A DNA stretch of 42,906 nucleotides from a virus (IMGVR_UViG_3300045988_069513:1-42906); one strand, 5' to 3'; numbered from the stretch's first letter, positions 1,916-42,837 are shown. Program-made: numbers and translations. The notes: generated by a model from the letters alone, not told the origin.

Positions 1916-2290
1916 ATGATCTTTACGACACAGTTAGGCAGAATTGACTACACCAACGCCCCGGAGGCCCTGAAGAAGATGACGGATCACATCCGGTACA
2001 TTCAGGAGCAGCTGGAGTGGACGCTGCAGAACCTGGACTCCTCCAATATCACGGAGATCAACACCAGCGATACCAAGATTTCGTCTGACACCGTGGACTT
2101 TTCCGGCAACAACATTGTGCTGAATGGGCGCAACGGGGAACGGTTCGAGGTGGGTATTGACGAGGGCAGCGGAGACTTTGTCTTTGGCCTGTATGGCAGA
2201 GACGGCGCCCAGATCTTCTACCTGACGAACGACGGAAACCTGGTTATCACAAGAAATGCCACCATCACCGTTGATGGCGGCACATGGTAA
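1916..2290 (+). CDS. Hypothetical structural protein (124 aa)
   Basis: ATG immediately follows the TAA of the previous gene (TAAATG), in the same operon. Confidence 0.65.
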   Translation: MIFTTQLGRIDYTNAPEALKKMTDHIRYIQEQLEWTLQNLDSSNITEINTSDTKISSDTVDFSGNNIVLNGRNGERFEVGIDEGSGDFVFGLYGRDGAQIFYLTNDGNLVITRNATITVDGGTW

Positions 2291-2301
2291 GGAGTGAATT
2301 T

Positions 2302-3879
2302 ATGGGATATGTAATTGGTTCCACGAAGGGCCAGGCCATCGCCAACCTTTTGAAGGAGGACGAGACGTACAAGGCGTCTGACGGCTCCACCTGGAAAAAG
2401 AACGCAGACGGCACCGTGACCGTCACCGACAAGGCCGGCGGCGTCACGCAGAACGCACTCCCCGCGGACAGCTTCAAGGGCAGCGCCACCGGCGTTGTGG
2501 CGAACAATGCGACACAGCAGGCCCAGGTGGATATGCTGAACAAAAACTCTCTGCAATGGTGGACGGCGGATGACGCCGGGAAGCAGGCCCTGTCCGCAGC
2601 CAACCAAGCTCTTGGAGCGGCCCTGGGCGGCTCTGTGGCATATGATCCTACCACCGGCACCTGGTCTGGCGTAGCGGGTACGACGCCTGCCACGCAGAGC
2701 GCTGACGTGCTGAGCAACATCGGCAGCTTTTCCTACGACGTGGCACAGCCTACGTATGAAAGCCAGTACAGTGACAGGATCGACGCCATGCTGAATGAAA
2801 TCCTGAACCGGGAGAAGTTCAGCTATGACGTTGAGGCGGATCCCCTGTACCAGCAGTACAAGACACAGTACCTGCGGGAGGGCGACCGCTCCATGCGGGA
2901 CACGCTGGCGGCGGCTGCGTCCGGTGCCGGCGGCATGAACAGCTACGCGGTGACTGCGGCACAGCAGGCCAACGACTACTACGCGGCGCAGCTGGGGGAC
3001 AAGATCCCGGAGCTGTACCAGCTTGCCTACGAGATGTACCTGACGGACATTGACAACCAGGTGAGAGACTTGGGTCTGCTGCAGGATATGGACAACACCC
3101 AGTACGGACGCTATCGGGACACCATGAGCGACTGGCGCAATGACCGGGACTTCGCCTACGGGCAGTACCGGGATAACGCAGCCGACCTCAAGTGGGGCGC
3201 AGAATTTGACGAGTCTATCCGGCAATGGCAGACCGACTACGAGCGGAACGCACTGGAAAGTGACCGGAACTACAACCGCGACGTGTACGAGAGCGACCGG
3301 AAATATAACCGGGGTGTGTACGAGTGGGACACCAGCTTTGACTACGGCAAAGACCGCGACGCAGTCAAAGATCAGAACGACGCGTGGGACAAGGCTCTTA
3401 CCATCCTCCAGAACGGCGGATACCCCAGCGACGAGCTGCTGGAAGCTGCCGGCATGAGCGCAGCGGAGGCTAACTCCATCCGGGAAGCGCAGACTATTGT
3501 CTTTACCGGAGGCGGTGGTTCAGATGGTACTGGTGGTTCCGGTGGATCTGGCGGCGGCGATGAACCGGATGACACCCCCGTGTTCAACAACGATAACGGC
3601 AGTGGTTTCACAGAAAAGCATGCAGCCGCAGTCAAGGCAGCGCCTGACCGCACCTCCGCCGACGTGTCTGATCTCAGCAGCAAGGGTAAGAGCGCCTTGC
3701 AGAGCCTGAGTATGATGTACGACTCCATCAGTAATCAGTACCCTGCAAAAGACGGTATGTATCCCGTGGAAAAGACCATCCTTGCGATGGCTGCAGAGGG
3801 CAGCATCACGGCGGACGATGGGTACATTCTGATGCAGCATTTTGGCTACGACGGAGAGAAACACTTCCCTGAAGGGTAA
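2302..3879 (+). CDS. Hypothetical virion protein (525 aa) with a Tyr/Arg/Asp-rich repeat region and a Gly/Ser linker
   Basis: AAGGAG at about 2289 with ATG at 2302. Contains repeated R-N/D-Y-N-R-D/G-V-Y-E motifs (SDRNYNRDVYESDRKYNRGVYEWD) and the linker GGGGSDGTGGSGGSGGG. Confidence 0.7.
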   Translation: MGYVIGSTKGQAIANLLKEDETYKASDGSTWKKNADGTVTVTDKAGGVTQNALPADSFKGSATGVVANNATQQAQVDMLNKNSLQWWTADDAGKQALSAANQALGAALGGSVAYDPTTGTWSGVAGTTPATQSADVLSNIGSFSYDVAQPTYESQYSDRIDAMLNEILNREKFSYDVEADPLYQQYKTQYLREGDRSMRDTLAAAASGAGGMNSYAVTAAQQANDYYAAQLGDKIPELYQLAYEMYLTDIDNQVRDLGLLQDMDNTQYGRYRDTMSDWRNDRDFAYGQYRDNAADLKWGAEFDESIRQWQTDYERNALESDRNYNRDVYESDRKYNRGVYEWDTSFDYGKDRDAVKDQNDAWDKALTILQNGGYPSDELLEAAGMSAAEANSIREAQTIVFTGGGGSDGTGGSGGSGGGDEPDDTPVFNNDNGSGFTEKHAAAVKAAPDRTSADVSDLSSKGKSALQSLSMMYDSISNQYPAKDGMYPVEKTILAMAAEGSITADDGYILMQHFGYDGEKHFPEG

Positions 3880-3896: not shown

Positions 3897-6800
3897 ATGG
3901 CACGTAAAATGAGCCAAAGCTCCAGAGACAAACTGAACGCCTACTATGACGAAATAGGGGTAAAAAGAAACGACAGAGAGGACGAGGGGAAACCCTCGCC
4001 CTCCTCCGCCGCTTCCAATCCTTCCACCGCTACCAATTCCAGCAGCGGCGCAACGACTTCAAAGCGGAAAATGAGCCAAGAGTCAAGAGATAAGCTCAAC
4101 GCCTATTATTCGCGCGTTGGAGCGGCGGCGCCGACATACACGCCGACAAAGGAAGATGACAAAGCACAGACTTCGTCCTCTGCGGCGGACACCAACAAGA
4201 CGAACCCTTTTTCTGAGGTTTGGAGGGGGTTTACGGATTTTTGGTGGTATGGTCGCGGTGATGCGTATGATGCGGTTACTAAGGCCAACCAGATCTACGA
4301 CACCAAGTTTGAGGAAGATAAGAAGGCTGTTGAGGAGTACAAGCAAAAGGAGCTCGACAAGTGGCTTGTGACCGAAACTGAGGCAGATGCGAGAGTATCT
4401 ACCGAAAAGACGAAACTTTCCACAAAGGCCGCAGATATTGCCGCGCTGGAAACAACCCTTTCTACGATGGCGGCAGAGTTTGAACAAACCCGCGACCCTG
4501 CCAAGTATTCCGCATACGAGGTAAAATACAACGAGTACGAGAAAGCGATTGCCGACTATGAAAAGTCTGTTGCAGCGTACACCGAATTGTGGAACAATGT
4601 CGCGCAGGAGAAAATTGCTGGTCGCAAAACGGACGATAGCGGATGGGAAACCGCAGGAAAGACTTTATGGGCCGGTGTTACTGGCCTTTCGGATGCTGTT
4701 GGCAAAACGCTCGATTATGTTTTCCCGACGGAGTTTTTGGGGAAATATGACCCGTTCACATGGATGAGCGACCAAGCAAGGCGGGAGAATTACGACGCGC
4801 AGATGGCACTTTCGGAGTCATTGGAAGGTCGCGGCTGGGTAGCAAAGACGGCGTCCGAACTTGGCATAGGCCTCATTCAGATGCTTCCTGACGTTGCGGC
4901 GACCGTGGCTTCCGGTGGCACAAACGCCACCACTTATGTGGATGATTTGTACCGCGCGGGATCATCTGCCGTTGCAGCCGCCAACAAGGCTGATAACCTC
5001 TGGGACTCCTTCAAAACAGCAAACGCGAAAATGTTTAGCAATCCCGGTTTCTATGTTGCCGCAGCGAGGACACTTGGCACCGACTACGAAACTGCAAAGG
5101 AAGCCGGAGCAACTGACGCACAGGCAACGGCCTATGCGCTGATTACCACCTACCTGAACGCCGGTATTGAGATTAGCGGTGGTATTCAGGCCTTGCCGGA
5201 TGCCCTTCAAACAGGAGACAAGAGCGCTATTCTTGACTGGATCCTTAGCGCACACGAGGAAGGCCTGGAAGAAGTTGTGCAGCGCTTTGTATCGGGATCT
5301 ATGGAAAAAGCTGTCTATGATCCCGACAAGGAGTGGTTTTCTACAACAAACGAGGACGCTATCATCCACCCGGAAACGATGGCAAAGGACTACGGCATGG
5401 GTACCGCTATTGGCGGCATTGCCGGTGGCGGGCAGACGGTAGCAATTAGCGTTCTGAACAGGATCGCACAGGCGAAAACACCCGACGTTCAGGCGCAGGT
5501 GATTGATGCTGTGCGGCACGATCCTGAAACTGTGAACGCCTTGGTGCAGGAGGCCAAAACCGCAGGCGAGACCGAGATCACGGAGCAGGTGGAGCAGAAA
5601 ATTGCCTCTGGCGAAGAAGTCACCCGACAGGAAGTTGTGCAGTTGGTCGCTGCCAGCGGCGCACAGGTGCAGGAAGAAACCACCGAGGCGGCAACGGAAC
5701 CCGAGGCGCAGACCGTCCCGCAGCAGGAAGAACCGGCAACGGAAGTAAAGAGAAGTGAATCGCTTGCTGAGGAAATGACGCTGGAGGGAGCGGTGGAAAA
5801 CGGCACCGTCACCGAAGCTGCGGTAGATACCGAAGGCGCAACCCGCAACGGCGTGGCCGTCCTGACCAACTACGCCAAGCAGGCGCACATGGGCGAAAAC
5901 GGCCTGAAAGCAATCGCTGATTTTTACGATGCCAACGAGAACCCGGAAACGGCACCGTTCTATGGCACCTTCGCAGCATATTGGAACGCCGGTTACAACG
6001 GAAAAGCGTTTGAGGAAGTCCGCGCCACCAACCGCGGTAACGTGTCCGATGTGGTTATGCGGGCCGCCTACAACGCCGGGCAGATGGACGCGATCCAGGG
6101 AAGTGGCAAAAAGGCCGTTGACAAAACAGCAGGCCAGACCGATAATATTTCCGGAAAAACCCAGAAAACTGCGAAGCCGAAAACTGTTCGAACCCAAAAG
6201 AGCGATTGGTCTGCGCACGATGTAACGTGGACGCTTCCTGCCGGCAGCCCCAACAAGGCTACTGTCGTTGCATACAGCACGAAGGCAACCAGCGACACAA
6301 TCGATGTTATGGCGGACGAGAATCCGACGGCCACCATCAGTCAGCTCCGCGACCTTATTCTCTATGATCAGGACGCGAAGAAGGTGCTGCAGCAGTACAT
6401 CGATGCGGGGTACGGAGATCAGGTGGCGAGCGAGTGGTTCAGCTATGACCGCAAGCGCGGCATTGGAAAGCCTGTCACAAAGTGGGTGTCGGGGGTAATA
6501 AACACTGAAGCGGACAATAAGGAGGCAACCGAACATGGCAAAGAGACCTTGGGAGAAGTTTCTGACGAAGGACGAGTACTGGAGCCTGACACGCGAGGGG
6601 CGGATGCAGGCGGACTACTGGACGGAGTGGCTTCCCAAAATGTGCAAGAGAATGCAGAAGGCCGGGACGCTGTATCCGACGCTGAAAGAGGAAGGGGAAC
6701 GCCTGTCGGAGCTGTTGTGGGAACTGATGCAGGTGCACAAGTACCCCGAGGACGGAGCGATGGAATTCATCAAGGAAGAAGTGTACGCACTTCCTCCGGA

Positions 6801-9800
6801 GTAAGCGAACAGGAGGTAAACGACGATGGCGATGTCGAAGGAAACTATCGAAAAGACCAAGCAAGCACTGCTGGCAGCGAAAGAACGGTGGGAGAAGATG
6901 CCACCGGAGGAGAAGAAGCGCCTGCAGGAAGAATACGAGAAAAATCCGGAGGAACGGATCCTGATACCGGACTGAGCGACGAAGATCCGCATCCGTGGGC
7001 AACGAAAAACGCCGTTGAGCCCGAACCCGGAAGCATTTCTGCAGAAGCAAAGCACGAAGCCGAAAGTTACGACGTTAAGTGTGTTGTCGTTTCGGACGAC
7101 GCGTGGGATGCAAATCATCCCTCTGCGCAGGCTTTTTCGCGGAATGGTGTGGTCTATGCCCGTGAACACATTGACGAAGTTTTCCGCGGCGTGGTGGCCC
7201 CGCATGAATTGACCCACGTTATGAAACAGCTTGGGTATAAGCCGTATCTGGATTTTCTTGATCGGACGAGCGATATGCTCAATTATGAAATCGAAGATGC
7301 ACAAGCACTGATGCAACACGTGGCGGAGCACGCACGCATTGACCTTTTTGGCATGGACGAGTCCGCCTCCCAAAAATTGTACGACGAGCTTAATGCCTCT
7401 GTTTACGGGCATATTGTTCGGGGAGATGTTGAGGGTAAATCCAGGTTTGGTCACGTAGATTTCCGCGATGCCTTCAACGACTTCGACGCTTATGCAACCG
7501 AACTGGCAGAAATTCACCGGCAGTTTAAAAACCGAAACCATCCCGGCGCGTCCGACACAGTTGCCCAGGAGCAGATCGAGCAGATATCCGACCTTGCAAA
7601 TCAGGAGGAGCCGAAAGGCACGAACTTTGTAATTGGCGCGAATGGTGCGAAGATGCCCACGACCCCGAAGGCGCGATACAAAGCCAACGCCGACGCTATC
7701 AAGACCCTGCGCGCCATTATGGCGGAAAACCGCATGGCAACCCCGCAGGAGCAGGAGACCCTTTCCAAATACACCGGCTGGGGCGGCCTGTCTGACGTTT
7801 TCAACGAGAAAAACGAGAGCTGGGCGAAAGAGTACAAGCAGCTTAAAAAGTTGCTGGATGACGGCGAGTATAAGACGGCAAAGGGATCTATCCTTGATGC
7901 GTACTACACTGACCCGTCGGTCATTCGCGGTATGTATAACGGCCTTGCGTCGCTTGGCTTCACCGGCGGCCGTATGCTGGAGCCTTCCTCCGGTGTTGGT
8001 CGTTTCATTGGCGCAATGCCGCAGGAAATGCTTGGCGGCGTGAAATCTTGGACGGCTGTTGAACTGGACAAGATCACCGGCAATATCGCAAAGTACCTTT
8101 ACCCCAACGCCGACGTGCGCGTGCAGGGCTATGAGACGGCAAAAATCCCTGACGGGTATATGGACGTTGTTATCGGGAACGTCCCCTTTGGTAATATTCC
8201 CATCGCGGACAAGGCTTATCCCGCAAGCGTTACGAAATCTATCCACAACTACTTTATCGCTAAGAGCCTTGATAAGCTGCGTCCCGGCGGCATTGCCGCC
8301 ATCATCACCAGCAGCGGCACACTGGACGCTATGGGCACTGAGGCGAGAAGCTATTTTATGAAGCAGGCGGACTTGATCGGCGCTATCCGTCTGCCGAACA
8401 CCGCATTTGAGGGCACCGGAACCAACGTTGTTTCTGACATTTTGGTGTTCAAGAAGCGGGAACCCGGCACGGCCTACAAAGGCGAAGCGTTTATTGAGGT
8501 TGGCAGAAAGCCTTGGACGGGCGAAAACCAATGGGGCGGTTACGAAATCAACGAGTATTTCCTAAAGCACCCTGAAATGGTGTTGGGTACGGCAGCTTAC
8601 GGAAAGGGACAGTACGGGCGCAATGTTGTGACCTACAATCCCCTTGACAGCAGACTTAGCCTGCAGAAGCAGATCGAGAAGGCTTTCGGCAAAATCAAGG
8701 CTAAGATGGACTACCCCGTGCAGCGCACGCAGGAGGAGATCAGAGCCGAGATCCGAGAAGCCTCCGGGAAGGTGAAGCAGGGAGGCCTTGTAAGCAAGGG
8801 CGGCAAGCTGTACCGCAATAACGGCGGTGTTCTTGAACACGCTGCGGAGATCAGCGAAAAGGACGCTGCTGCAGTTACTTCCATTCTTGAAATACGCGAT
8901 GCGGCACGAAACCTACTGAACCTCCAGATTGACGACGGCGGGGAAGCTGCCATCACGGCGGCACGGAGCAATCTTAACAAGCTCTATGACGCTTTTGTGA
9001 AAAAGTACGGCAGCCTGAACCTTCCGAAAAACAAGAAACTGGTGCAGAATGACGTGGACAGTCCCTTCATTCTGGCGCTGGAGGACTACAACAACGAGAC
9101 CCGCGTTGCAAAAAAAGCGGCCATCTTCAGCAAGAACACCATCACCGCGACGAAGGTTGTCACCCATGCGGACACCGTGGAGGAAGCGTTGACCGTTTCC
9201 CTGAACGAGACCGGCACCGTGGACATTCAGCGCATCGCCCAACTGACAGGCCAGCAGGCGGCAGCGGTAGAGCGGGAAATGCTGGAACGCGGTTTGGCGT
9301 TTAAGAACAGGAACGGCAACTTGGAAACCGCTGAAACCTATCTGTCCGGCAACGTCCGCGCGAAACTGCGCGACGCGGAAGCCCTGGCAGAGGGCGATGC
9401 GGACTACAACCGCAACGTGGAAGCCTTGAAAAAGGTAATTCCTGCCGACATTCCTGCCGAGGAGATCAAGGTGCGCCCTGGTGCAACGTGGATCCCCGAC
9501 AGCATCTATTCCGCCTTTGCTGGTGAAATGCTTGGCGGTGCCGGCATGACTTGGCGTAGCGGTCAGCGCGTTCCCGCTGTGGAGGTTGTCTATAACCGCG
9601 CCGTGGGCAAATTCTTCATCGAGGTCAACGATCCGTGGCTGAAAAGCCGCCCCGAGAATACCTCTACGTGGGGCACTTCTGACCGGCCTTTCGTCGGCGG
9701 TCAGAACAGCATCCTTGAAGCTGCACTGAATAATAAGATGGTTAGCGTGTATCGCACCGTCGGAGATAGCCGCGTGCTGGATAAGCAGGCCACGGCAGCA

Positions 9801-12800
9801 GCGCAGGAGAAATTGGAGAAGGTGCTGGCAGAATTCCAGAGCTGGATTTGGAAAGACGAGGCCCGGCGCACGGAATTGGGTGGTCTGTATAACGAGGTTT
9901 TCAACAACACCGTTACGCCGAAGTATGACGGCACGCACCTGACTGTGATCGGCAGCAATCCCGAGAAGCCTATGCGTCCTCACCAGAAGAACGCAGTGCA
10001 GAGAGTTATCAACAGCGGCGGCAACACCCTGCTTGCACACCGCGTTGGCGCAGGTAAGACCTACGAAATGGCGGCGGCAGCCATGAAACTGCGGCAGCTT
10101 GGTATTATCAAGAAGCCTCTGTTTGTGGTGCCGAAGCACCTTGTTGCACAGTGGGACAGCGAGTTCCGCGACTTCTTCCCTGCGGCGAAGATCCTTCCGC
10201 TTGAACACAAGGACTTCACGCCTGCCAACCGCAAACTGTTTGCAAACCGCATTGCCACCGGCGACTATGACGCGGTGATTATGAGCTATGAGCAGTTCGG
10301 CATGGTGCCTATGAGTCAGGAGCACCAGGAGGCGTTCTATCAGGAACAGATCGACGCGCTGGAAATGGCAATCCTTGAAAGCAAGCGTGCCAGCGGCAAG
10401 CGCGACCCGTCCGTGCGGGACATGGAGCGCAGCAAAAAGACCTTTGAAACGAAGCTCAAAAAGCTGGGTGACGGCAAAAAAGACGTTGACAACATCAACT
10501 TTGAGCAGTTGGGCATTGACGCACTGTTTGTGGACGAAGCTCACAACTTCAAAAATCTGTTCTACAATACGAAGATGCAGGGTGTGGCCGACCTTGGCGA
10601 TAAGGACGGCAGTATGCGGGCCTTCGACCTGTATATGAAGGTGCGCTACCTGCAGCGGCTCAACGGCGGGCGTGGCATCGTCTTTGCCACGGCAACACCG
10701 GTTATGAACAGCGTTGTTGAGCTTTACACCATGCAGCGGTATTTGCAAGGCGATCTTCTGGACGCGAAGGGCTTGACCAACTTCGACGCATGGGCGAACC
10801 AGTTTGGCGACGTTGTGACTATCCGCAAGATGAAAACCGGCGGCAACGGGTACGAGCTGAAACAGAGTCTTTCCAAGTACAAGAACCTTAGCGAAATGCA
10901 GCAGATGTTCCGCAGCTTTGCAGACGTTATCACCGACGCAGCAGACCTGCCCTATCTGAAAATCCCGAAGATGAAGGGCGGCAAGCGCATTGTTGTGGAA
11001 TGTGAGCCGAGTGCGTTCCAGGAGCAGTTCATGGAAGAGCTTGGCCAGCGTGCCGAGGCTTTGCGCGGTGCAGGCAAGGGCGGCAGCGAAGATCATATTT
11101 TTAAGGTTTTCGACGACGGTAAGAAGATCAGTTTTACACAGCGCATGATTGACAGCGACCTTCCTTATGAGGACGGCGGCAAGATTATGAAGTGCGCGGA
11201 GAACGTGCTGGAAATCTGGAAGCGCACCAAGGCCAACAAGGGCACGCAGCTTATCTTCTGCGACCGAGGAACCCCAGGCGGCGCAGAAGCGCAACGCGGC
11301 GTTTCTCTGTATGAGGACGTTAAGAACCTGCTCGTGGCGGGTGGGGTGCCCGCAAATCAGGTAGCTTTTATCCACGACGCAGACACCGAAGAGGCAAAGT
11401 CCAAACTGTTCAAGGATGTCAAGGCTGGCAACGTCCGCGTGTTGATCGGCTCCACGGCGAAGATGGGCACCGGCATGAATGTGCAGGATCGCATTGTAGC
11501 TATGCATGAGCTGAACGCTCCCGACCGTCCCGGCGATCTGGAACAGAACGAAGGGCGTGCCTTGCGGCAAGGCAATATGAACGAAGAGGTTGAGGTTTAC
11601 GCCTACGTAACCAAAAAGACCTTTGACAGCCGCCAGTGGGACAACCTGAAACGAAAGGCGACCTTCATTCATCAGATCATGGCCGGCGAGTACAACGGGC
11701 GCGAGGCGGACGGCGACGGCGACCTTGCATTGTCCGCGGCGGAAATTTCCGCGATTGCCTCCGACAACCCGCTTATCATGGAGCAGTTCGAAGTTTCCGA
11801 AAAGATTTCCAATCTGGAAAACCTGGAACGAGCGCATACGAAGGAAGTAGCCGAGGCCAAGCGGCGTATTGCAACCGCCGAAAAAGAGATCGAGAGCGAC
11901 ACGGAGTATCTGGAACGCTACAAGAAAGACCGTGAGAGCCGGCAGGAGACCGCAGGAGACAAGTTCCGTGCTTCCATAGGCGGTAAGACCTTTGCAGAAA
12001 GAAAAGCCGCAGGTGAGGCGCTGATTGCGGCTGCGAAGAGGACGCTTAACCTGAGCGCAGAGGCCGAGACCTACACTGAGGTTGGTAGCTTTGCCGGTTT
12101 CAAGCTGTTCGTTACCAGCAAGGGCGATATGATCCTGCGCGGCAAGGCGCAGTATCGCGGTACGGTCAATATGCAGAGCGCGGTTGGCACGATCCAGGCT
12201 CTGGAAGCAATCCCCAAGAGGATCGACGCCATTATTTCTGCTACCGAGACCCGACTGGCGGAGAATAAGGCGGCAATCACCAAGCTGCGGAAAACCGCTG
12301 CCTCCTCTTTCGACAAGGCGGAGGAGCTGATTGCAGCACGCGTGCGCGAGGCAGAGATCATGGCAGAACTGAACCCCCCGAGCGAGCAGCAGATGGCGGC
12401 GCTTGATGACGGCGACGATGTGGATAACGATGTTTCTTCTGTTGCCGATGCCGAACGGTGGACAGCAAAGCGAGTGGGCGGTAGCGAGAAAGCCCCCAAA
12501 TCGCTGAGCGAGATTGTAGAACAAATCCGGCAGGACTTTGGCGTTCACATCACCACCGGACACGTTCGCGGCAAGGGCACACGAGGACAGTACAACCACC
12601 AGAACCAGGGGATCAGAACCAAGGTCGCAAACAACCTCCCCACGATTGCGCATGAGTTGGGGCACCACCTGACGCAGAAGTACAACCTGCTTTCCGGCCT
12701 AGAGGCTTCCGTCAAGACAGAGTTGGAGGACGCGCTGGGTGAAGGCAAAGAGAACTACCCGGAGAAGAAGTGGCATAGTGAAGGCTTCGCTGAATATCTG

Positions 12801-15800
12801 CGCAAGTTCTTGCAGAACCGGGAGACGGCGGCCATTGACTATCCCGAAGTAACCAAATTGTTCTTGAACGCGCTCTCCGGCAAAGACCGCGCCCAGCTCG
12901 AAGAGTTGGCCGACGAGGTGAACGCCTATTACTCTCTGGACGCGGACACCGCAACTAGCGCTATCAGGCTCCGCGAGGAAGGCGCACCGGATGCACGAAC
13001 CGTTAGCCAGAAGATCCGGGCCAAGATGAGCGCTCTGTATCAGGCGTGGGTGGACAGCAACGAAGGCATAAAGCAATTCGACCGGGCAACCGGGGCAAAC
13101 ACCTACAAGATTGCCTCCAATGCTGCCTATGCAGATGCGATTGCCGGGCAGATCATCACCGGGGACCTGACTGGCACGAATGGACAGTACGTTGGCCCCG
13201 GTCTGAAAACCGCATTGTATGGCCTGGACATGAACAACAAGCAGGAGTACCGGCTGTTTGGCGAATACCTGACCGTGAAGCACGGCCCGGAACGCCTTGC
13301 AGAGGGTATGCGGATCTTCGCGGATGACAGAAAGAACAGTACGGGATGGATGCAGCGCAGGCAGGCAGAGTTGGAAGCCCAATATCCGCAGTTTGCGGAA
13401 ATCTCTGACCGGCTGTATGAGTTCATCACGGCTTTCCACGAGGCATGGGGCGTGGAAACTGGCCTGATCGGAGAGGATACGTTTGAGGAGTGGAAGGTGC
13501 GCTGGCAGCATTACGTTCCCCTAAACCGCGCCGTCGGCGTTGGCAACCGGGGCATTGGTGCGAAGCGCGGCTTTGCGAACCAAACCAGCACCATCAACAA
13601 GGCTCGCGGCAGTGGTTTGGACATTGTGCATCCCGTGGACAACCTGATTAACAACATCGTTAAAATGGTTAGTGCAGGCGTGCGGAACAATGTTATGGCT
13701 ACGATCACCGAGCAGGCGACGCAACTTGGCGCTAACGCAATGTTCCTTGAAAAGGTTCCTATGCCCTTGAAGGTGACGAAGGTGGATATGACTGGAGTAA
13801 AAGACCAGCTCACCGAGATGCTGGAAGGTAGTGACCTGGACGCAAAGAGCAAAGCGAAAGCCGGCGAAGTTGTCAGCAATCTGGACGACATTCTGTTCCA
13901 GTACGGCAGAGGCAAAGCATACGGAGACGTTGTTACCGTTCTAAAGGACGGCAAGCCTGAGTTCTGGAAAATCAACGATCCCCAGCTCCTCAGCTCCATC
14001 ACAAACATGGCACCTAAAACGATGGACGGTATTCTGGACGCTTACGCAGTTGTCAGCCGGTTCATGACTTCGAACATCACCGGGAACAATGTGATCTGGT
14101 CTCTGTTCTCCAACTTCCCCCGCGATATGATGACGTTCTTTACCTACTCCAAGGATAAGAACCCTAAGCGGATGATTAAGGGCGTGAGCGATGCGTTTAT
14201 CAACCGCGCTAAAGGAGACAAGGCTGATCCTCTCTACAAGGAGTTCCTTGCGATGGGCGGCGGCAAGACCAGCGCATACACCGCGGACAGAGATCTTGCC
14301 AAGAGGGCAAGGGAGAAACTTTCTGGCAAGAAAATCAACGCCAACCCCCTTGACTGGATCGCATATGTCAGCGATACGATCGAGAACGGCCCGCGATACG
14401 CTACCTACAAGCTCATGCGTGACCACGGCATGAACCCGCAGGAGGCTTTCTACGAGGCTATGGACATCACGGTTAACTTCCGGCGCGGCGGTAGAATTGC
14501 CCGGGAGTTGAACAAGGTGGTTCCGTTCTTCAATGCGAATGTTCAGGGCCTCGACAAATTCCGGCGCTGGATTACAGCAGAGGGAGTGCCTGCGGAGCAT
14601 CGCAAAAAGGTCATTAAAACCAGAACGACGTACTACGTTGCGGCAAGCGCCGCGCTGGCTGCGATGATCTACGCGCTGAACATGGGCAGCGGTGAAAGAG
14701 AGAAGGAGTATGAGCAGCTCTCCACATATACCAAGAACAGCTTTTGGTGCATCCCGCTTGGCGACGGCAAGTTTTTTGCCATCCCCAAGCCCCGAGAGAT
14801 CGGCGTGCTGAGTTCGTTCTTTGAGTCAACGCTGGAATATGTGATCGGAGAGAACGACCATGCGTTTGACGACTTCTACTCCTACGCAATGGAAAACTGC
14901 CTTCCCTCCATTGCAAACGACATTGCCCAGATCCCCAACAAGGGCCTTGTCGAAACCGGAATGAACATCATAGGCAGTTTTGGCGTTATCGGCGTAATTG
15001 GTTATCTGGGCGCAAACCGCGACTTCCTTGGGCGGCCCATCGTCTCTAGCGGCTTGCAGAACCTTGAACCCAAGGATCAGTACACCGAGCGCACAAGCAA
15101 GATTGCCTATTGGCTTGGGCAGGCGTATGGCGGCAGCCCTCAGCAGATCGACTACTTTTTCCAGCAGGTGCTTGGCGGTTGGTGGAAAGCCCAAAAAGCG
15201 CTGTTCCCCGTTGGCCAAGAAAACGTGGACTATACGCTTGGCGTGCAGAACACCTACGTGAAGGACAACCAGTATTCCACCGACCTTACCAACTGGCTGT
15301 ATGACCGGAAAGACGCAACCAGCAGGGCAAATGCAAGCGACCCGGCCAACATGGAGAAGGCCATCTCTGCGAAGTGGGATAGCAACATGACCGATTTCTA
15401 CGGCTCCTACTACAAGCTGGCGAAGAACAAGGCAGAGACCGTTGCTACACGGTCTACCCGGCAGCTTGTATTGGAGATGATCTTGGAATATCAGAAGGCA
15501 ATCGACACAAACGCCAAAACGGAGACGCAGCGAGCTGTTGAGGAAGTCTGCACGAGCAAGAGCAGCACCGAGTTCCTTCCTTCTGTTATGCCTGTAGAAG
15601 TGACAGACGGTAAGGGCGTGAAGCACGTATTGTCTGATATTCAGTATGTTGAATTCCAAACGGACTATAACCGCCTGTACTGGGAGATCGTAGAGGAGAC
15701 TCTATCCGGCAATGTGAATGAGCGAGCAGAAATTTTGAAGGCCGCTAAACGTGTCGCAAAAGAGGAGGCTGTGGAACGTGTTCTTGCGCGCATCGGGGCG

Positions 15801-16244
15801 CCGAAGTCTGCCTACACAACTACGTATGGCAACGTGTCCGCCGACAACGTGACGGAGTTCTTGGCAAGTGTTTCCGCGGCGGACGATGATGGCAGCGTTA
15901 AACAGGCTGAGGTGATTGACATTATCACGGGAATGGGCCTTAGTGACTCTGATGCATGGACGCTGTATTTCAGCAAGTACGACGGCAAAGCCGCAACTGC
16001 TGCGGAGGAGCACGGCATTCCTGCTGAGTTGTTTATGAACACGAAGCTGGAGCTGGACAACATCAAGCCGGACTACCGCAGCGACGGAACAGTTATCCGC
16101 GACAGCCGGCGCAGGAAGGTGGAATCCTATCTCGCAACTGTCTGCAGCGACTACAAGGAGTACCTGTTCTTCCTCGGGATGGAGTTCAGCTCTGTCAAGG
16201 ACGACGCGGACTACATCGCGTATTTCGGCAGGGAAGATGATTAA
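3897..16244 (+). CDS. Giant polyvalent protein (4115 aa): zincin + N6-adenine methyltransferase + SNF2 helicase + second zincin + C-terminal hydrophobic region (DarB-like core)
   Basis: Uninterrupted ORF with AAAGGAGG 8 nt upstream of ATG 3897. Motifs read directly: HELTH, EPSSGVGRF...GNVPFG, GAGKT, DEAH, ATATPVMNS, QNEGRALRQGN, HELGHH. See the finding on the cryptic internal boundary at 6491-6975. Confidence 0.8.
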   Translation: MARKMSQSSRDKLNAYYDEIGVKRNDREDEGKPSPSSAASNPSTATNSSSGATTSKRKMSQESRDKLNAYYSRVGAAAPTYTPTKEDDKAQTSSSAADTNKTNPFSEVWRGFTDFWWYGRGDAYDAVTKANQIYDTKFEEDKKAVEEYKQKELDKWLVTETEADARVSTEKTKLSTKAADIAALETTLSTMAAEFEQTRDPAKYSAYEVKYNEYEKAIADYEKSVAAYTELWNNVAQEKIAGRKTDDSGWETAGKTLWAGVTGLSDAVGKTLDYVFPTEFLGKYDPFTWMSDQARRENYDAQMALSESLEGRGWVAKTASELGIGLIQMLPDVAATVASGGTNATTYVDDLYRAGSSAVAAANKADNLWDSFKTANAKMFSNPGFYVAAARTLGTDYETAKEAGATDAQATAYALITTYLNAGIEISGGIQALPDALQTGDKSAILDWILSAHEEGLEEVVQRFVSGSMEKAVYDPDKEWFSTTNEDAIIHPETMAKDYGMGTAIGGIAGGGQTVAISVLNRIAQAKTPDVQAQVIDAVRHDPETVNALVQEAKTAGETEITEQVEQKIASGEEVTRQEVVQLVAASGAQVQEETTEAATEPEAQTVPQQEEPATEVKRSESLAEEMTLEGAVENGTVTEAAVDTEGATRNGVAVLTNYAKQAHMGENGLKAIADFYDANENPETAPFYGTFAAYWNAGYNGKAFEEVRATNRGNVSDVVMRAAYNAGQMDAIQGSGKKAVDKTAGQTDNISGKTQKTAKPKTVRTQKSDWSAHDVTWTLPAGSPNKATVVAYSTKATSDTIDVMADENPTATISQLRDLILYDQDAKKVLQQYIDAGYGDQVASEWFSYDRKRGIGKPVTKWVSGVINTEADNKEATEHGKETLGEVSDEGRVLEPDTRGADAGGLLDGVASQNVQENAEGRDAVSDAERGRGTPVGAVVGTDAGAQVPRGRSDGIHQGRSVRTSSGVSEQEVNDDGDVEGNYRKDQASTAGSERTVGEDATGGEEAPAGRIREKSGGTDPDTGLSDEDPHPWATKNAVEPEPGSISAEAKHEAESYDVKCVVVSDDAWDANHPSAQAFSRNGVVYAREHIDEVFRGVVAPHELTHVMKQLGYKPYLDFLDRTSDMLNYEIEDAQALMQHVAEHARIDLFGMDESASQKLYDELNASVYGHIVRGDVEGKSRFGHVDFRDAFNDFDAYATELAEIHRQFKNRNHPGASDTVAQEQIEQISDLANQEEPKGTNFVIGANGAKMPTTPKARYKANADAIKTLRAIMAENRMATPQEQETLSKYTGWGGLSDVFNEKNESWAKEYKQLKKLLDDGEYKTAKGSILDAYYTDPSVIRGMYNGLASLGFTGGRMLEPSSGVGRFIGAMPQEMLGGVKSWTAVELDKITGNIAKYLYPNADVRVQGYETAKIPDGYMDVVIGNVPFGNIPIADKAYPASVTKSIHNYFIAKSLDKLRPGGIAAIITSSGTLDAMGTEARSYFMKQADLIGAIRLPNTAFEGTGTNVVSDILVFKKREPGTAYKGEAFIEVGRKPWTGENQWGGYEINEYFLKHPEMVLGTAAYGKGQYGRNVVTYNPLDSRLSLQKQIEKAFGKIKAKMDYPVQRTQEEIRAEIREASGKVKQGGLVSKGGKLYRNNGGVLEHAAEISEKDAAAVTSILEIRDAARNLLNLQIDDGGEAAITAARSNLNKLYDAFVKKYGSLNLPKNKKLVQNDVDSPFILALEDYNNETRVAKKAAIFSKNTITATKVVTHADTVEEALTVSLNETGTVDIQRIAQLTGQQAAAVEREMLERGLAFKNRNGNLETAETYLSGNVRAKLRDAEALAEGDADYNRNVEALKKVIPADIPAEEIKVRPGATWIPDSIYSAFAGEMLGGAGMTWRSGQRVPAVEVVYNRAVGKFFIEVNDPWLKSRPENTSTWGTSDRPFVGGQNSILEAALNNKMVSVYRTVGDSRVLDKQATAAAQEKLEKVLAEFQSWIWKDEARRTELGGLYNEVFNNTVTPKYDGTHLTVIGSNPEKPMRPHQKNAVQRVINSGGNTLLAHRVGAGKTYEMAAAAMKLRQLGIIKKPLFVVPKHLVAQWDSEFRDFFPAAKILPLEHKDFTPANRKLFANRIATGDYDAVIMSYEQFGMVPMSQEHQEAFYQEQIDALEMAILESKRASGKRDPSVRDMERSKKTFETKLKKLGDGKKDVDNINFEQLGIDALFVDEAHNFKNLFYNTKMQGVADLGDKDGSMRAFDLYMKVRYLQRLNGGRGIVFATATPVMNSVVELYTMQRYLQGDLLDAKGLTNFDAWANQFGDVVTIRKMKTGGNGYELKQSLSKYKNLSEMQQMFRSFADVITDAADLPYLKIPKMKGGKRIVVECEPSAFQEQFMEELGQRAEALRGAGKGGSEDHIFKVFDDGKKISFTQRMIDSDLPYEDGGKIMKCAENVLEIWKRTKANKGTQLIFCDRGTPGGAEAQRGVSLYEDVKNLLVAGGVPANQVAFIHDADTEEAKSKLFKDVKAGNVRVLIGSTAKMGTGMNVQDRIVAMHELNAPDRPGDLEQNEGRALRQGNMNEEVEVYAYVTKKTFDSRQWDNLKRKATFIHQIMAGEYNGREADGDGDLALSAAEISAIASDNPLIMEQFEVSEKISNLENLERAHTKEVAEAKRRIATAEKEIESDTEYLERYKKDRESRQETAGDKFRASIGGKTFAERKAAGEALIAAAKRTLNLSAEAETYTEVGSFAGFKLFVTSKGDMILRGKAQYRGTVNMQSAVGTIQALEAIPKRIDAIISATETRLAENKAAITKLRKTAASSFDKAEELIAARVREAEIMAELNPPSEQQMAALDDGDDVDNDVSSVADAERWTAKRVGGSEKAPKSLSEIVEQIRQDFGVHITTGHVRGKGTRGQYNHQNQGIRTKVANNLPTIAHELGHHLTQKYNLLSGLEASVKTELEDALGEGKENYPEKKWHSEGFAEYLRKFLQNRETAAIDYPEVTKLFLNALSGKDRAQLEELADEVNAYYSLDADTATSAIRLREEGAPDARTVSQKIRAKMSALYQAWVDSNEGIKQFDRATGANTYKIASNAAYADAIAGQIITGDLTGTNGQYVGPGLKTALYGLDMNNKQEYRLFGEYLTVKHGPERLAEGMRIFADDRKNSTGWMQRRQAELEAQYPQFAEISDRLYEFITAFHEAWGVETGLIGEDTFEEWKVRWQHYVPLNRAVGVGNRGIGAKRGFANQTSTINKARGSGLDIVHPVDNLINNIVKMVSAGVRNNVMATITEQATQLGANAMFLEKVPMPLKVTKVDMTGVKDQLTEMLEGSDLDAKSKAKAGEVVSNLDDILFQYGRGKAYGDVVTVLKDGKPEFWKINDPQLLSSITNMAPKTMDGILDAYAVVSRFMTSNITGNNVIWSLFSNFPRDMMTFFTYSKDKNPKRMIKGVSDAFINRAKGDKADPLYKEFLAMGGGKTSAYTADRDLAKRAREKLSGKKINANPLDWIAYVSDTIENGPRYATYKLMRDHGMNPQEAFYEAMDITVNFRRGGRIARELNKVVPFFNANVQGLDKFRRWITAEGVPAEHRKKVIKTRTTYYVAASAALAAMIYALNMGSGEREKEYEQLSTYTKNSFWCIPLGDGKFFAIPKPREIGVLSSFFESTLEYVIGENDHAFDDFYSYAMENCLPSIANDIAQIPNKGLVETGMNIIGSFGVIGVIGYLGANRDFLGRPIVSSGLQNLEPKDQYTERTSKIAYWLGQAYGGSPQQIDYFFQQVLGGWWKAQKALFPVGQENVDYTLGVQNTYVKDNQYSTDLTNWLYDRKDATSRANASDPANMEKAISAKWDSNMTDFYGSYYKLAKNKAETVATRSTRQLVLEMILEYQKAIDTNAKTETQRAVEEVCTSKSSTEFLPSVMPVEVTDGKGVKHVLSDIQYVEFQTDYNRLYWEIVEETLSGNVNERAEILKAAKRVAKEEAVERVLARIGAPKSAYTTTYGNVSADNVTEFLASVSAADDDGSVKQAEVIDIITGMGLSDSDAWTLYFSKYDGKAATAAEEHGIPAELFMNTKLELDNIKPDYRSDGTVIRDSRRRKVESYLATVCSDYKEYLFFLGMEFSSVKDDADYIAYFGREDD
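6535..6804 (+). CDS. Nested +1-frame ORF (89 aa) inside the giant ORF; possibly TnpV-like (recollection only)
   Basis: AAGGAGG at 6519-6525 lies 9 nt before ATG 6535. Third codon positions are mostly G/C and the translation is globular-looking (MAKRPWEKFLTKDEYWSLTREG...). The giant frame over the same bases reads as G/R/D/E/A low complexity. Confidence 0.55.
   Translation: MAKRPWEKFLTKDEYWSLTREGRMQADYWTEWLPKMCKRMQKAGTLYPTLKEEGERLSELLWELMQVHKYPEDGAMEFIKEEVYALPPE
6826..6975 (+). CDS. Second nested +1-frame ORF (49 aa), coiled-coil-like
   Basis: AGGAGG at 6811-6816 lies 9 nt before ATG 6826. Translation MAMSKETIEKTKQALLAAKERWEKMPPEEKKRLQEEYEKNPEERILIPD. The TGA at 6973-6975 forms CTGA with giant-frame codon CTG 6972-6974. 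Confidence 0.45.
   Translation: MAMSKETIEKTKQALLAAKERWEKMPPEEKKRLQEEYEKNPEERILIPD
7203..7217 (+). other. HExxH zincin metallopeptidase motif 1 (HELTH) within the giant ORF
   Basis: Translation VVAPHELTHVMKQLGY in the giant frame. Confidence 0.6.
7758..8460 (+). other. Gamma-class N6-adenine DNA methyltransferase domain (approximate bounds)
   Basis: SAM-binding motif I LEPSSGVGRF at 7977-8006, and a catalytic motif IV variant NVPF (GNVPFG) at 8178-8189 about 60 aa downstream. This is the order typical of gamma-class amino-MTases. Confidence 0.75.
9975..11650 (+). other. SNF2-family helicase/ATPase domain (approximate bounds)
   Basis: Motif I GAGKT at 10047-10061, Ia PLFVVPKHLVAQW, II DEAH at 10533-10544, III ATATPVMNSVVELY, VI QNEGRALRQGN at 11544-11573. 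Confidence 0.85.
12651..12668 (+). other. HExxH zincin motif 2 (HELGHH) within the giant ORF
   Basis: Translation PTIAHELGHHLTQKYN in the giant frame. Confidence 0.55.
14628..15015 (+). other. Two hydrophobic, TM-like segments near the C-terminus of the giant protein
   Basis: YYVAASAALAAMIYAL and IIGSFGVIGVIGYLGA are uncharged hydrophobic runs of 16-17 residues. Confidence 0.45.
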
Positions 16245-41854: not shown

Positions 41855-42115
41855 ATGAAGGACAGACTTAGCAAGCTCATGACCATTAAGAGCATCGTGA
41901 CCATCATCCTGACCGTGGTTTTCGCGTACCTCTCCATTGTGGGCGTCATTGGCGCAGAGCAGTTTATGCTGGTATTCACCACGGTCATCGCCTTCTACTT
42001 TGGAACCCAGAAGGAAAAGAAGGATCAGGCAGCGGAGAGCACCACCACCGTTATGTGCCCTCTGGCAGATACCGAAAGCAATACTCTGGGCATTGAAGGC
42101 GGTGAGGCGAAATGA
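41855..42115 (+). CDS. Holin (86 aa, two TM segments, charged C-terminus)
   Basis: IVTIILTVVFAYLSIVGVI and FMLVFTTVIAFYFG segments. AAGGAGG RBS. ATGA-coupled to the endolysin. Confidence 0.7.
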   Translation: MKDRLSKLMTIKSIVTIILTVVFAYLSIVGVIGAEQFMLVFTTVIAFYFGTQKEKKDQAAESTTTVMCPLADTESNTLGIEGGEAK

Positions 42116-42837
42116 CAGAAGCACAGGCACGGCAGAAAATCGTAAGCATTATGCAGGGGTGGATCGGGCGTAAGGAGGCTGACGGCAGCCACAAGGCGAT
42201 CATTGACATCTACAACGCCCACAAGCCCCTTGCCAGAGGCTACAAGGTCACCTACACGGACGCCTGGTGCGCGACCGCCGTCTCCGCAGCGTTTATTGCG
42301 GCGGGTATGACCGACATCGGCCCCACGGAGTGCTCCTGCATCAAGATGATTGAGCGGCACAACGCCCTGGGGCAATGGATGGAGGCGGACAACTACGTTC
42401 CCAAGCCCGGCGACATCATCATGTACGACTGGCAGGACACCGGCAAGGGCGACAACGCCGGCACTCCCGACCATGTGGGCATTGTGGAGCGGGTGGACGG
42501 CGAGGCCATTATCGTCATCGAGGGCAATATCAACGACTCCGTAGGACGGCGTGCAATGCCCGTAAACGGACGAAATATCCGGGGGTACTGTTTGCCGAAC
42601 TATGCCGCAAAAGCCACCACAGAGCCGCCTCTGCTGTCCCAGGAGGATTTTGACGCCATGATGGACAACTATCTGTCCAGACTGGCAGAAAAAGAGCCCT
42701 CTGCGTGGAGCAAGGAGGCCCGGGCGTGGGCGGAGAAGAACGGCATTGTCAAGGGTGACGAGTGCGGAAAGAAGAAGTACAAGGCATTCTGCACCCGTGA
42801 GGAAATGGTACAGATGCTATTCAACAGGGAGGGATAA
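42112..42837 (+). CDS. Endolysin: CHAP-type amidase/peptidase with C-terminal SLH-like wall-binding motif (241 aa)
   Basis: DAWCATAVS (Cys) ... PDHVGIVERV (His) ... EGNIND spacing is typical of CHAP domains. The C-terminus reads SKEARAWAEKNGIVKGDE...FCTREEMVQMLF. Confidence 0.75.
   Translation: MTEAQARQKIVSIMQGWIGRKEADGSHKAIIDIYNAHKPLARGYKVTYTDAWCATAVSAAFIAAGMTDIGPTECSCIKMIERHNALGQWMEADNYVPKPGDIIMYDWQDTGKGDNAGTPDHVGIVERVDGEAIIVIEGNINDSVGRRAMPVNGRNIRGYCLPNYAAKATTEPPLLSQEDFDAMMDNYLSRLAEKEPSAWSKEARAWAEKNGIVKGDECGKKKYKAFCTREEMVQMLFNREG

Follow-up and report, generated by a model that had tools for sequence, protein, structure and literature searches.

Does a giant reading frame in a viral genome encode one protein, or have several genes been run together in it? 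The question is raised by a stretch of viral DNA of 42,906 nucleotides (nt) (IMGVR_UViG_3300045988_069513:1-42906; the window, here meaning the whole stretch that was analysed), in which a single open reading frame (ORF) of 4115 codons is crossed, between positions 6480 and 6980, by a run of five guanines (G5), an out-of-frame TAATAA and two small ORFs of the +1 frame, each led by a Shine-Dalgarno (SD) sequence. The giant frame (frame 0) reads TCG GGG GTA ATA AAC across G5 and TAATAA, and both small ORFs lie wholly inside it on the same strand. The original prediction had read this segment as a cryptic gene boundary and offered three explanations for it: a homopolymer indel in the assembly, a recent fusion with overprinted small genes, or regulated slippage at G5. 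The features on which it rested (the 4115-amino-acid (aa) ORF, G5, TAATAA, both SD sequences and ATG codons, the 89- and 49-aa ORFs and the CTGA that closes the second of them) were all found where it had placed them. The evidence presented below indicates that the segment 6498-6974 is very probably dual-coding within one real, uninterrupted gene for a DarB-like polyvalent protein.

The coding signal changes frame over this segment. The GC content at giant-frame codon positions 1, 2 and 3 is 0.73, 0.53 and 0.38 in 6498-6974, compared to approximately 0.57-0.59, 0.38-0.46 and 0.61-0.70 elsewhere in the gene; read in their own frame, the small ORFs have the usual positional pattern. When all 12.3 kb of the giant ORF were scored by codon log-odds in 40-codon windows, frame 0 failed to score best only in those starting at 6537-6927, the last of which reaches about 7046; over the second small ORF, the codon score favours the +1 frame. 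The frame-0 peptide of the segment consists of 73% G, R, D, E, A, P, S and T residues versus 53% in the rest of the protein, and of 18% hydrophobic residues versus 29%. Giant-frame peptides over the small ORFs of other loci are similarly hydrophobic-poor and contain 73-82% of these eight residues versus 52-61% elsewhere. The off-frame appearance of the giant frame over the small ORFs, which had been noticed from the window alone, is thus borne out by both the positional GC content and the codon log-odds scan. The peptide spanning the junction (the translation of 6297-7196) had no match among 5.8 billion proteins.

The same arrangement recurs in relatives of the locus. In 88 of 89 homologous loci, which include a few phages taken from two collections, the small ORF, in the +1 frame, is enclosed by a giant frame free of stops. 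Across the small ORF, the frame that starts one base earlier was open in 20 of 21 contigs from gut metagenomes, metagenome-assembled genomes and IMG/VR, the window included (46-90% identity; L025 31%), in all three more distant IMG/VR members (about 35% identity), in all six cultured phages from GenBank, and in all 59 further IMG/VR genomes. The open frames are mostly longer than 1000 codons (maximum 4123) and often extend past the fetched DNA. The sole exception, L025 (Ga0134126_10805447, 549-731), is a 31%-identical match within a 235-codon open stretch of a 1-kb contig, where the frame one base upstream contains a stop. No other homologue lacking the embedding was found, and L025 may represent a relative that stands free or is fused in another way.

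Both frames are open in these diverged homologues more often than chance allows. In solid coding parts of the giant gene, stops occur in the equivalent off-frame at a rate of 0.0457 per codon, and no open run there exceeds 106 codons. When synonymous codons were resampled with the gene's own usage, the giant frame over the 89-aa ORF came out free of stops with a probability of 0.015-0.018, and that over the 49-aa ORF with one of 0.077. With the codon usage of each locus, 2.5-8.3 stops were expected, and per lineage the probability of none lay between <0.00025 and 0.059. Because synonymous sites are saturated in many of these lineages (dS about 0.8-1.5), the open state cannot be mere inheritance. 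Third codon positions of the small ORFs are T at a frequency (T3) of 0.057, compared to 0.19 for the gene and genome-wide, the lowest value among 348 control windows being 0.10; T3 ranges from 0 to 0.11 in all 59 further IMG/VR loci, and G occupies 57% of third positions in the small ORFs. This depletion of T appears to be what keeps the giant frame open. The overprinted layout, which reaches from gut Firmicutes-type phages to cultured phages of Proteobacteria, appears to be ancient. Of the proposed recent fusion with overprinted small genes, the overprinting therefore holds and the recency does not.

Protein-level selection sits in the +1 frame. Among the codons in 6535-6975 that differ between the window and its 90%-identical relative L002, 22 are synonymous and 22 non-synonymous in the +1 frame, versus 7 and 37 in frame 0. 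Ratios of non-synonymous to synonymous substitution rates (dN/dS; Nei-Gojobori) for close gut-phage pairs were 0.12-0.22 in the +1 frame versus 1.5-2.4 in frame 0, and pairs of proteobacterial phages gave 0.26-0.28 versus >1. Frame 0 over the small ORFs evolves like an off-frame, and the embedded frame is under protein-level purifying selection. The original prediction had named, as the mark of spurious nested ORFs, a giant-frame peptide conserved among homologues with synonymous variation in that frame only. The opposite was found: homologues conserve the +1 protein, and the giant frame still runs through uninterrupted.

The embedded gene also appears to carry translation-initiation signals of its own. 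In nearly every distinct locus, a strong SD sequence (AAGGAGG, AGGAGG, GGAGG, GAGG or GGAG) is located 5-10 nt before a conserved ATG, with which the conserved domain begins. A stop in the +1 frame precedes this internal ATG by 2-16 codons in most loci, so that ribosomes would have little room to enter by frameshifting.

Cultured phages carry the same layout. A tblastn search with the distant family member P0014 matched 14 GenBank and RefSeq records, the matched phages being Erwinia phages Pavtok and Stean, Vibrio phage VvAW1, Klebsiella phages SopranoGao, LASTA and SJM3, Agrobacterium phage Atu_ph08, and Sinorhizobium phage PBC5. In all 14 records, the giant coding sequence (CDS) is the only annotated feature under the match, and the RefSeq records of Pavtok, VvAW1, SopranoGao, LASTA and Atu_ph08 have a single giant "DarB-like" CDS annotated there. 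The distance from CDS start to match is 4963 nt in Pavtok, 4753 in Stean, 2170 in VvAW1, 4276 in SopranoGao and 5059 in Atu_ph08; each of the five equals 1 modulo 3, which places the match in the +1 frame. The selection pattern and the T3 depletion of the cultured-phage copies are those of the gut loci; in VvAW1, for example, T3 is 0.064 versus 0.31, and 8.3 stops were expected.

The product of embedded gene 1 is predicted to be a member of a conserved family of small, all-helical, distantly TnpV-like proteins. Homologues of the 89-aa ORF at 83-63% identity are predicted by gene callers as separate proteins. A profile search of 1.84 billion representative proteins returned 67 family clusters (50% identity), nearly all of 75-140 aa and with the domain spanning the protein; no cluster has it as an in-frame part of a giant protein. 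When 30 metagenomic members were combined into a profile, this matched the ORFs embedded in the cultured phages with E values of 1e-9 to 1e-12 (scaled to a million sequences) and gave no match to the giant-frame peptides of those phages. The 30-sequence alignment was too diverse to serve for locus scans, and scans with the longer members P0047 and P0009 gave no match. The AlphaFold2 model of the 89-aa protein has five helices (pLDDT 74.6, moderate confidence).

Four family members align in the same register to positions ~15-86 of the profile of TnpV (PF14198), a small helical protein of clostridial transposons (E 9.6e-6 to 0.065). All four are sub-threshold, the best scoring 26.0 bits against a gathering threshold of 27, and the 89-aa window protein itself gave no match to this profile. 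The sub-threshold matches include P0014, P0013, P0047 and the small ORF of Pavtok (L029, 1519-1836). The alignment in a common register hints that the embedded gene may descend from a free-standing small gene of a transposon or an integrative and conjugative element; TnpV genes are known as free-standing, and the embedding is a difference from TnpV. No match was obtained by blastn of 5900-7700 against GenBank phages and PLSDB plasmids, or by tblastn of the 89-aa protein against phages and plasmids. The profile searches that had been suggested for the two small peptides led to no curated family above threshold, but the family of the 89-aa protein was found in the protein collections.

We propose that ribosomes starting at 3897 would read straight through 6498-6974 and produce the fused giant protein, in which the frame-0 segment would be a flexible hydrophilic spacer joining the ~860-aa N-terminal module to the HExxH, methyltransferase, SNF2-helicase and LPD38 modules. 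Other ribosomes would start at 6535 and 6826, yielding two small proteins from the same mRNA. Reading through the spacer would also explain why the downstream 3000-aa part has no start codon, a lack that the original prediction had correctly noticed and taken as a puzzle; it ceases to be one if that part is not a separate gene. The small genes would be the older, selected layer, because they are under protein-level selection and several members of the family are sub-threshold TnpV-like, and the giant frame would have been laid over them and kept open by the purging of third-position T.

Several observations weigh against dual coding as proposed here. Translation of both frames is something that we infer from selection and sequence. 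Permutation of synonymous codons within the ORF does not by itself reject chance (probability of no stop 0.15-0.5), because the codon composition itself carries the signal, and the T3-depleted composition could in principle have another cause. The 89-aa window protein has no above-threshold match in Pfam, PHROG or NCBIfam, and a Foldseek search with its AlphaFold2 model gave no neighbour in PDB or BFVD at E<=0.001. The six frames of the darB-ulx region of P1, whose darB is the relative studied by experiment, contain no embedded family member. In PBC5 (L033, NC_003324; locus about 1440-1500), the N-terminal part shares the frame of the small ORF and runs to its stop, so that the annotated 2180-aa CDS ends in the small-protein domain; the PHROG 938 'endolysin' profile (2185 positions) likewise has this domain at its C-terminus. 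A predicted fused product of N-terminal module and small domain is therefore present in at least one record.

The PBC5 record and PHROG 938 favour another reading, in which the small ORF is reached by +1 frameshifting from the giant frame, giving a product made of the N-terminal module and the 89-aa domain in the manner of the tail chaperone G/GT. We regard this as quite unlikely. The domain's first residue has its own SD and ATG in nearly all loci, with +1 stops just upstream in most of them, no slippery motif is shared, and the family proteins in databases stand alone. Moreover, PBC5 has a 1-nt deletion relative to Atu_ph08 (L032), GAGGTCG-AGC against GAGGTCGAAGC, located ~50 nt upstream of the small-ORF ATG, and its DarB part is read on in a different frame. 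The record dates from 2002, and the missing base may reflect either a sequencing error or a natural split. The locus resembles frameshift pairs (tail chaperone G/GT, dnaX, prfB) in having two frames in one mRNA stretch of a phage late gene, but differs from them in lacking a conserved slippery site or stimulator and in having a second frame with initiation signals of its own.

Programmed slippage at G GGG G (6491-6495) into TAATAA, which would set a regulated ratio of 866-aa to 4115-aa product, is very unlikely. Although tRNA-Gly can re-pair on GGG after a +1 shift and the tandem stops follow directly, the G5/TAATAA motif is confined to the lineage of the window, being absent in L002 and in 14 other distinct lineages. 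Those 14 lineages have no homopolymer there and no slippery motif in common, and neither an SD sequence upstream at the right distance nor a known stimulator was found (downstream RNA structure was not looked at); a strong SD sequence lies 24 nt downstream of the run instead. In addition, the giant ORF contains 2 G5 runs, 38 homopolymers of at least 5 bases and 9 off-frame tandem stops, and a slip anywhere in the gene meets a stop within about 25-35 codons. Regulated slippage was accordingly set aside as the explanation of the locus, although low-level slippage at G5 may occur in this phage.

That the small ORFs are non-functional relics or chance ORFs, with only the giant frame expressed, is highly improbable. 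The absence of above-threshold matches to curated families and the fact that the annotators of the 14 GenBank and RefSeq records did not call them would fit this view. However, dN/dS is well below 1 in the +1 frame and >1 in frame 0 for many pairs from two host phyla, the Firmicutes-type and proteobacterial copies are homologous at the profile level, the SD sequence and ATG are conserved, and it is the giant-frame peptide that has the off-frame composition.

An assembly artefact, in which a miscounted G run (G5 for G4) would have merged four genes (one of 866 aa, the two small ones and one of 3000 aa), is effectively refuted, even with a homopolymer standing beside out-of-frame stops exactly at the change of coding frame. 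Over 6122-6910, G5 included, the window does not differ from any of four independent assemblies, L003-L006, which come from four read sets (100% identity). At the place of the run, the 90%-identical L002 reads TCTGGCGTGAAGAAT, without G run or TAATAA and with frame 0 open across both small ORFs. The layout recurs in 88 of the 89 loci including finished genomes of cultured phages, and no start codon opens the downstream part (CTG at 6972).

Complete embedding of one phage gene in another is known from lambda, in which Rz1 lies wholly within the +1 frame of Rz, and from phiX174, in which the pairs A/B and D/E and gene K are nested. As in these systems, the locus has a whole gene, with a ribosome-binding site of its own, nested in a second gene that is read from the same strand in a different frame, and the pair is conserved among relatives. 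Both frames encode folded functional proteins there, whereas the host frame here would be a biased, unselected spacer in a protein of 3000-5000 aa. Here all selection at the protein level falls on the embedded frame, and a locus may hold two embedded genes one after the other, in the manner of a small operon. A review of overprinting in viruses reportedly opposes an old, selected frame to an odd, disorder-prone frame that is maintained mainly by the absence of stops. The newer layer here would differ in being not a new protein but a connector that fuses flanking genes through the gene between them. The likeness to P1 DarB and other polyvalent proteins consists of the N6-methyltransferase and SNF2-helicase core and the phage-type LPD38 domain. 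P1 Ulx was considered as a counterpart of the small protein and rejected, as it is not a homologue. The words 'frameshift', 'overlapping' and 'linker' do not occur in the text of Iyer et al. 2017 (PMC5512222), and full-text literature searches found no description of this arrangement.

With low confidence, we suggest a role for the 89-aa protein alongside the neighbouring DarB methyltransferase-helicase module, perhaps that of a partner or chaperone translated from the same mRNA. A broader and tentative idea, possible rather than likely, is that of a 'gene within a linker': phages across host phyla would join the DarB methyltransferase-helicase core of an injected, giant anti-restriction protein to the N-terminal module through a small gene that lies between them in another frame; that gene would keep its expression from a start site of its own, and its product would be a required partner (chaperone, regulator or subunit) assembling co-translationally. 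If this were true, annotation would miss a functional gene in every such phage, and polyvalent proteins would have a general route of growth by absorbing neighbour genes without deleting the genes between. A gene under purifying selection is in any case missing from 14 records of Klebsiella, Erwinia, Vibrio, Agrobacterium and Sinorhizobium phages, and it is also found in many metagenomic phage genomes. Since carriers are in culture, direct experiments are feasible. How DarB-like proteins are assembled and delivered is poorly understood, and the small protein offers a candidate partner for them. The joining of modules by a spacer overprinted on the gene between them would be an unusual evolutionary solution, its cost being extreme T3 depletion.

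Table 1. Features of the giant gene and of the overprinted segment, in coordinates of the window
Feature	Position	Strand	Remarks
Giant ORF	3897..16244	+	4115 aa, uninterrupted; very probably one gene for a DarB-like polyvalent protein (ORF list, translation)
N-terminal module	3897..6470	+	~860 aa, frame 0; normal coding signal (GC by codon position)
G5 run and TAATAA	6491-6495, 6496-6501	+	two +1-frame stops, closing the small-ORF frame upstream
Frame-0 'linker'	6498..6974	+	residues ~868-1026; stop-free, G/R/D/E/A/P/S/T-rich, overprinted on both small genes
SD AAGGAGG, small gene 1	6519-6525	+	9 nt before ATG 6535
Embedded gene 1	6535..6804	+	+1 frame, 89 aa
SD AGGAGG, small gene 2	6811-6816	+	9 nt before ATG 6826; 21 nt after gene 1 stop
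Embedded gene 2	6826..6975	+	+1 frame, 49 aa
CTGA junction	6972..6975	+	gene 2 TGA stop overlaps frame-0 CTG (Leu 1026)
HELTH (HExxH) motif	7203..7217	+	first frame-0 domain after the linker; co-occurs with embedded gene 2
N6_Mtase/Eco57I	about 8151-8468	+	Pfam
SNF2/ResIII (SNF2-rel_dom)	about 10017-10556	+	Pfam
Helicase_C	about 11352-11573	+	Pfam
LPD38	about 14703-15188	+	Pfam, E=8.5e-30

The second embedded gene is tied to the module that follows it. The 49-aa ORF was called as a gene in L002, and relatives of 60, 56 and 46 aa come after the first small ORF in L007, L008 and L023, respectively; the SD and ATG pair after gene 1 is present in L002 and in these three loci. The motif of the family is W-x3-(M/K)-P-E-E-K-K. 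Only 2 clusters represent it in the 5.8-billion-protein collection, and a match of the 49-aa ORF to DUF3106 was below threshold (21.1 vs 24.3 bits). A second small ORF was found only where the HExxH domain follows in frame 0 (the window, L002, L007, L008 and L023), and in loci without it (L001, L009, L010 and L024) the giant frame runs into an ADP-ribosyltransferase-like domain. L012-L014 probably do likewise, judging from near-downstream sequence that resembles that of L009. The heptamer TAAGCGA at the stop of gene 1 (6802-6808 in the window) recurs in many distant loci, where the giant frame reads G-[VL]-S-E. L023 (4259-4270) and L024 (2897-2908) share the first small ORF, and the whole downstream module is exchanged between them exactly at TAAGCGA, the second small gene plus HExxH domain standing in one against the ADP-ribosyltransferase-like domain in the other. 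This exchange suggests that TAAGCGA is a recombination junction for module shuffling. Wherever a locus was scanned, ~200-450 codons separate the embedded gene from the Eco57I/N6 methyltransferase domain downstream of it.

The CTGA that ends embedded gene 2 corresponds to TTGA in L002 (549-552), and the gene caller took its TTG as the start of a separate downstream gene. A single base at this site decides whether annotation gives one gene or several. Gene callers are inconsistent in this respect, the small genes being called on short contigs and one giant gene on complete genomes.

A sigma-70-like promoter match (TTGACA, 17 nt, GATAAT; 11 of 12 positions to consensus) is located at 6118-6146 (+), inside the giant ORF and ~390 nt upstream of ATG 6535. 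There are 3 promoter matches in 5900-7400, compared to 0.9 expected from shuffles. Judging from its sequence, the match at 6118-6146 could give the small genes and the DarB part a transcript of their own.

Very long antisense ORFs also cover the giant gene in 4962-13511 (-), among them 8913..12668 (1251 aa), 6615..8531, 4962..6536 and 6475..7050. They were rejected as genes, being codon-aligned shadows that result from the rarity of TTA, CTA and TCA (together 0.32% of codons); an antisense run of 1251 codons is unremarkable, with about 0.25 expected. The shadow ORF shifts phase at 6475..7050, following the +1-frame small genes, and this shift is an independent mark of the frame switch.

The giant protein matches PHROG 10089 'DarB-like antirestriction' with E=5.8e-225. 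It combines several unrelated enzymatic domains, including an N6-adenine methyltransferase and an SNF2-type helicase, with the phage-type accessory domain LPD38, in a phage setting; LPD38 has been listed as restricted to phage-type polyvalent proteins (Iyer et al. 2017, PMC5512222). The N-terminal module has no Pfam or PHROG match. Its last conserved motif, SEWFSYDRKRG, ends at 6461 and is common to L001 and L002. By analogy, the giant protein is probably packaged in the virion and may act against restriction: polyvalent proteins were proposed to be delivered with the DNA and then processed into units (Iyer et al. 2017, PMC5512222), and a very large methylase-annotated protein of phage H66 was described as structural, with homology to internal virion proteins (Hardies et al., PMC4819975).

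The window is a phage genome, with genes for a terminase, a P22-like portal, a capsid protein, a CHAP lysin and a serine recombinase elsewhere in it. Two ORFs of 503 and 531 aa (404-1915 and 2284-3879, +) stand directly 5' of the giant gene and have no Pfam match; in a circularly permuted genome, they would follow the CHAP lysin (42112-42837). Related contigs of 42,433, 42,402 and 42,718 bp are close to the window in length, and the window is therefore probably a complete genome.

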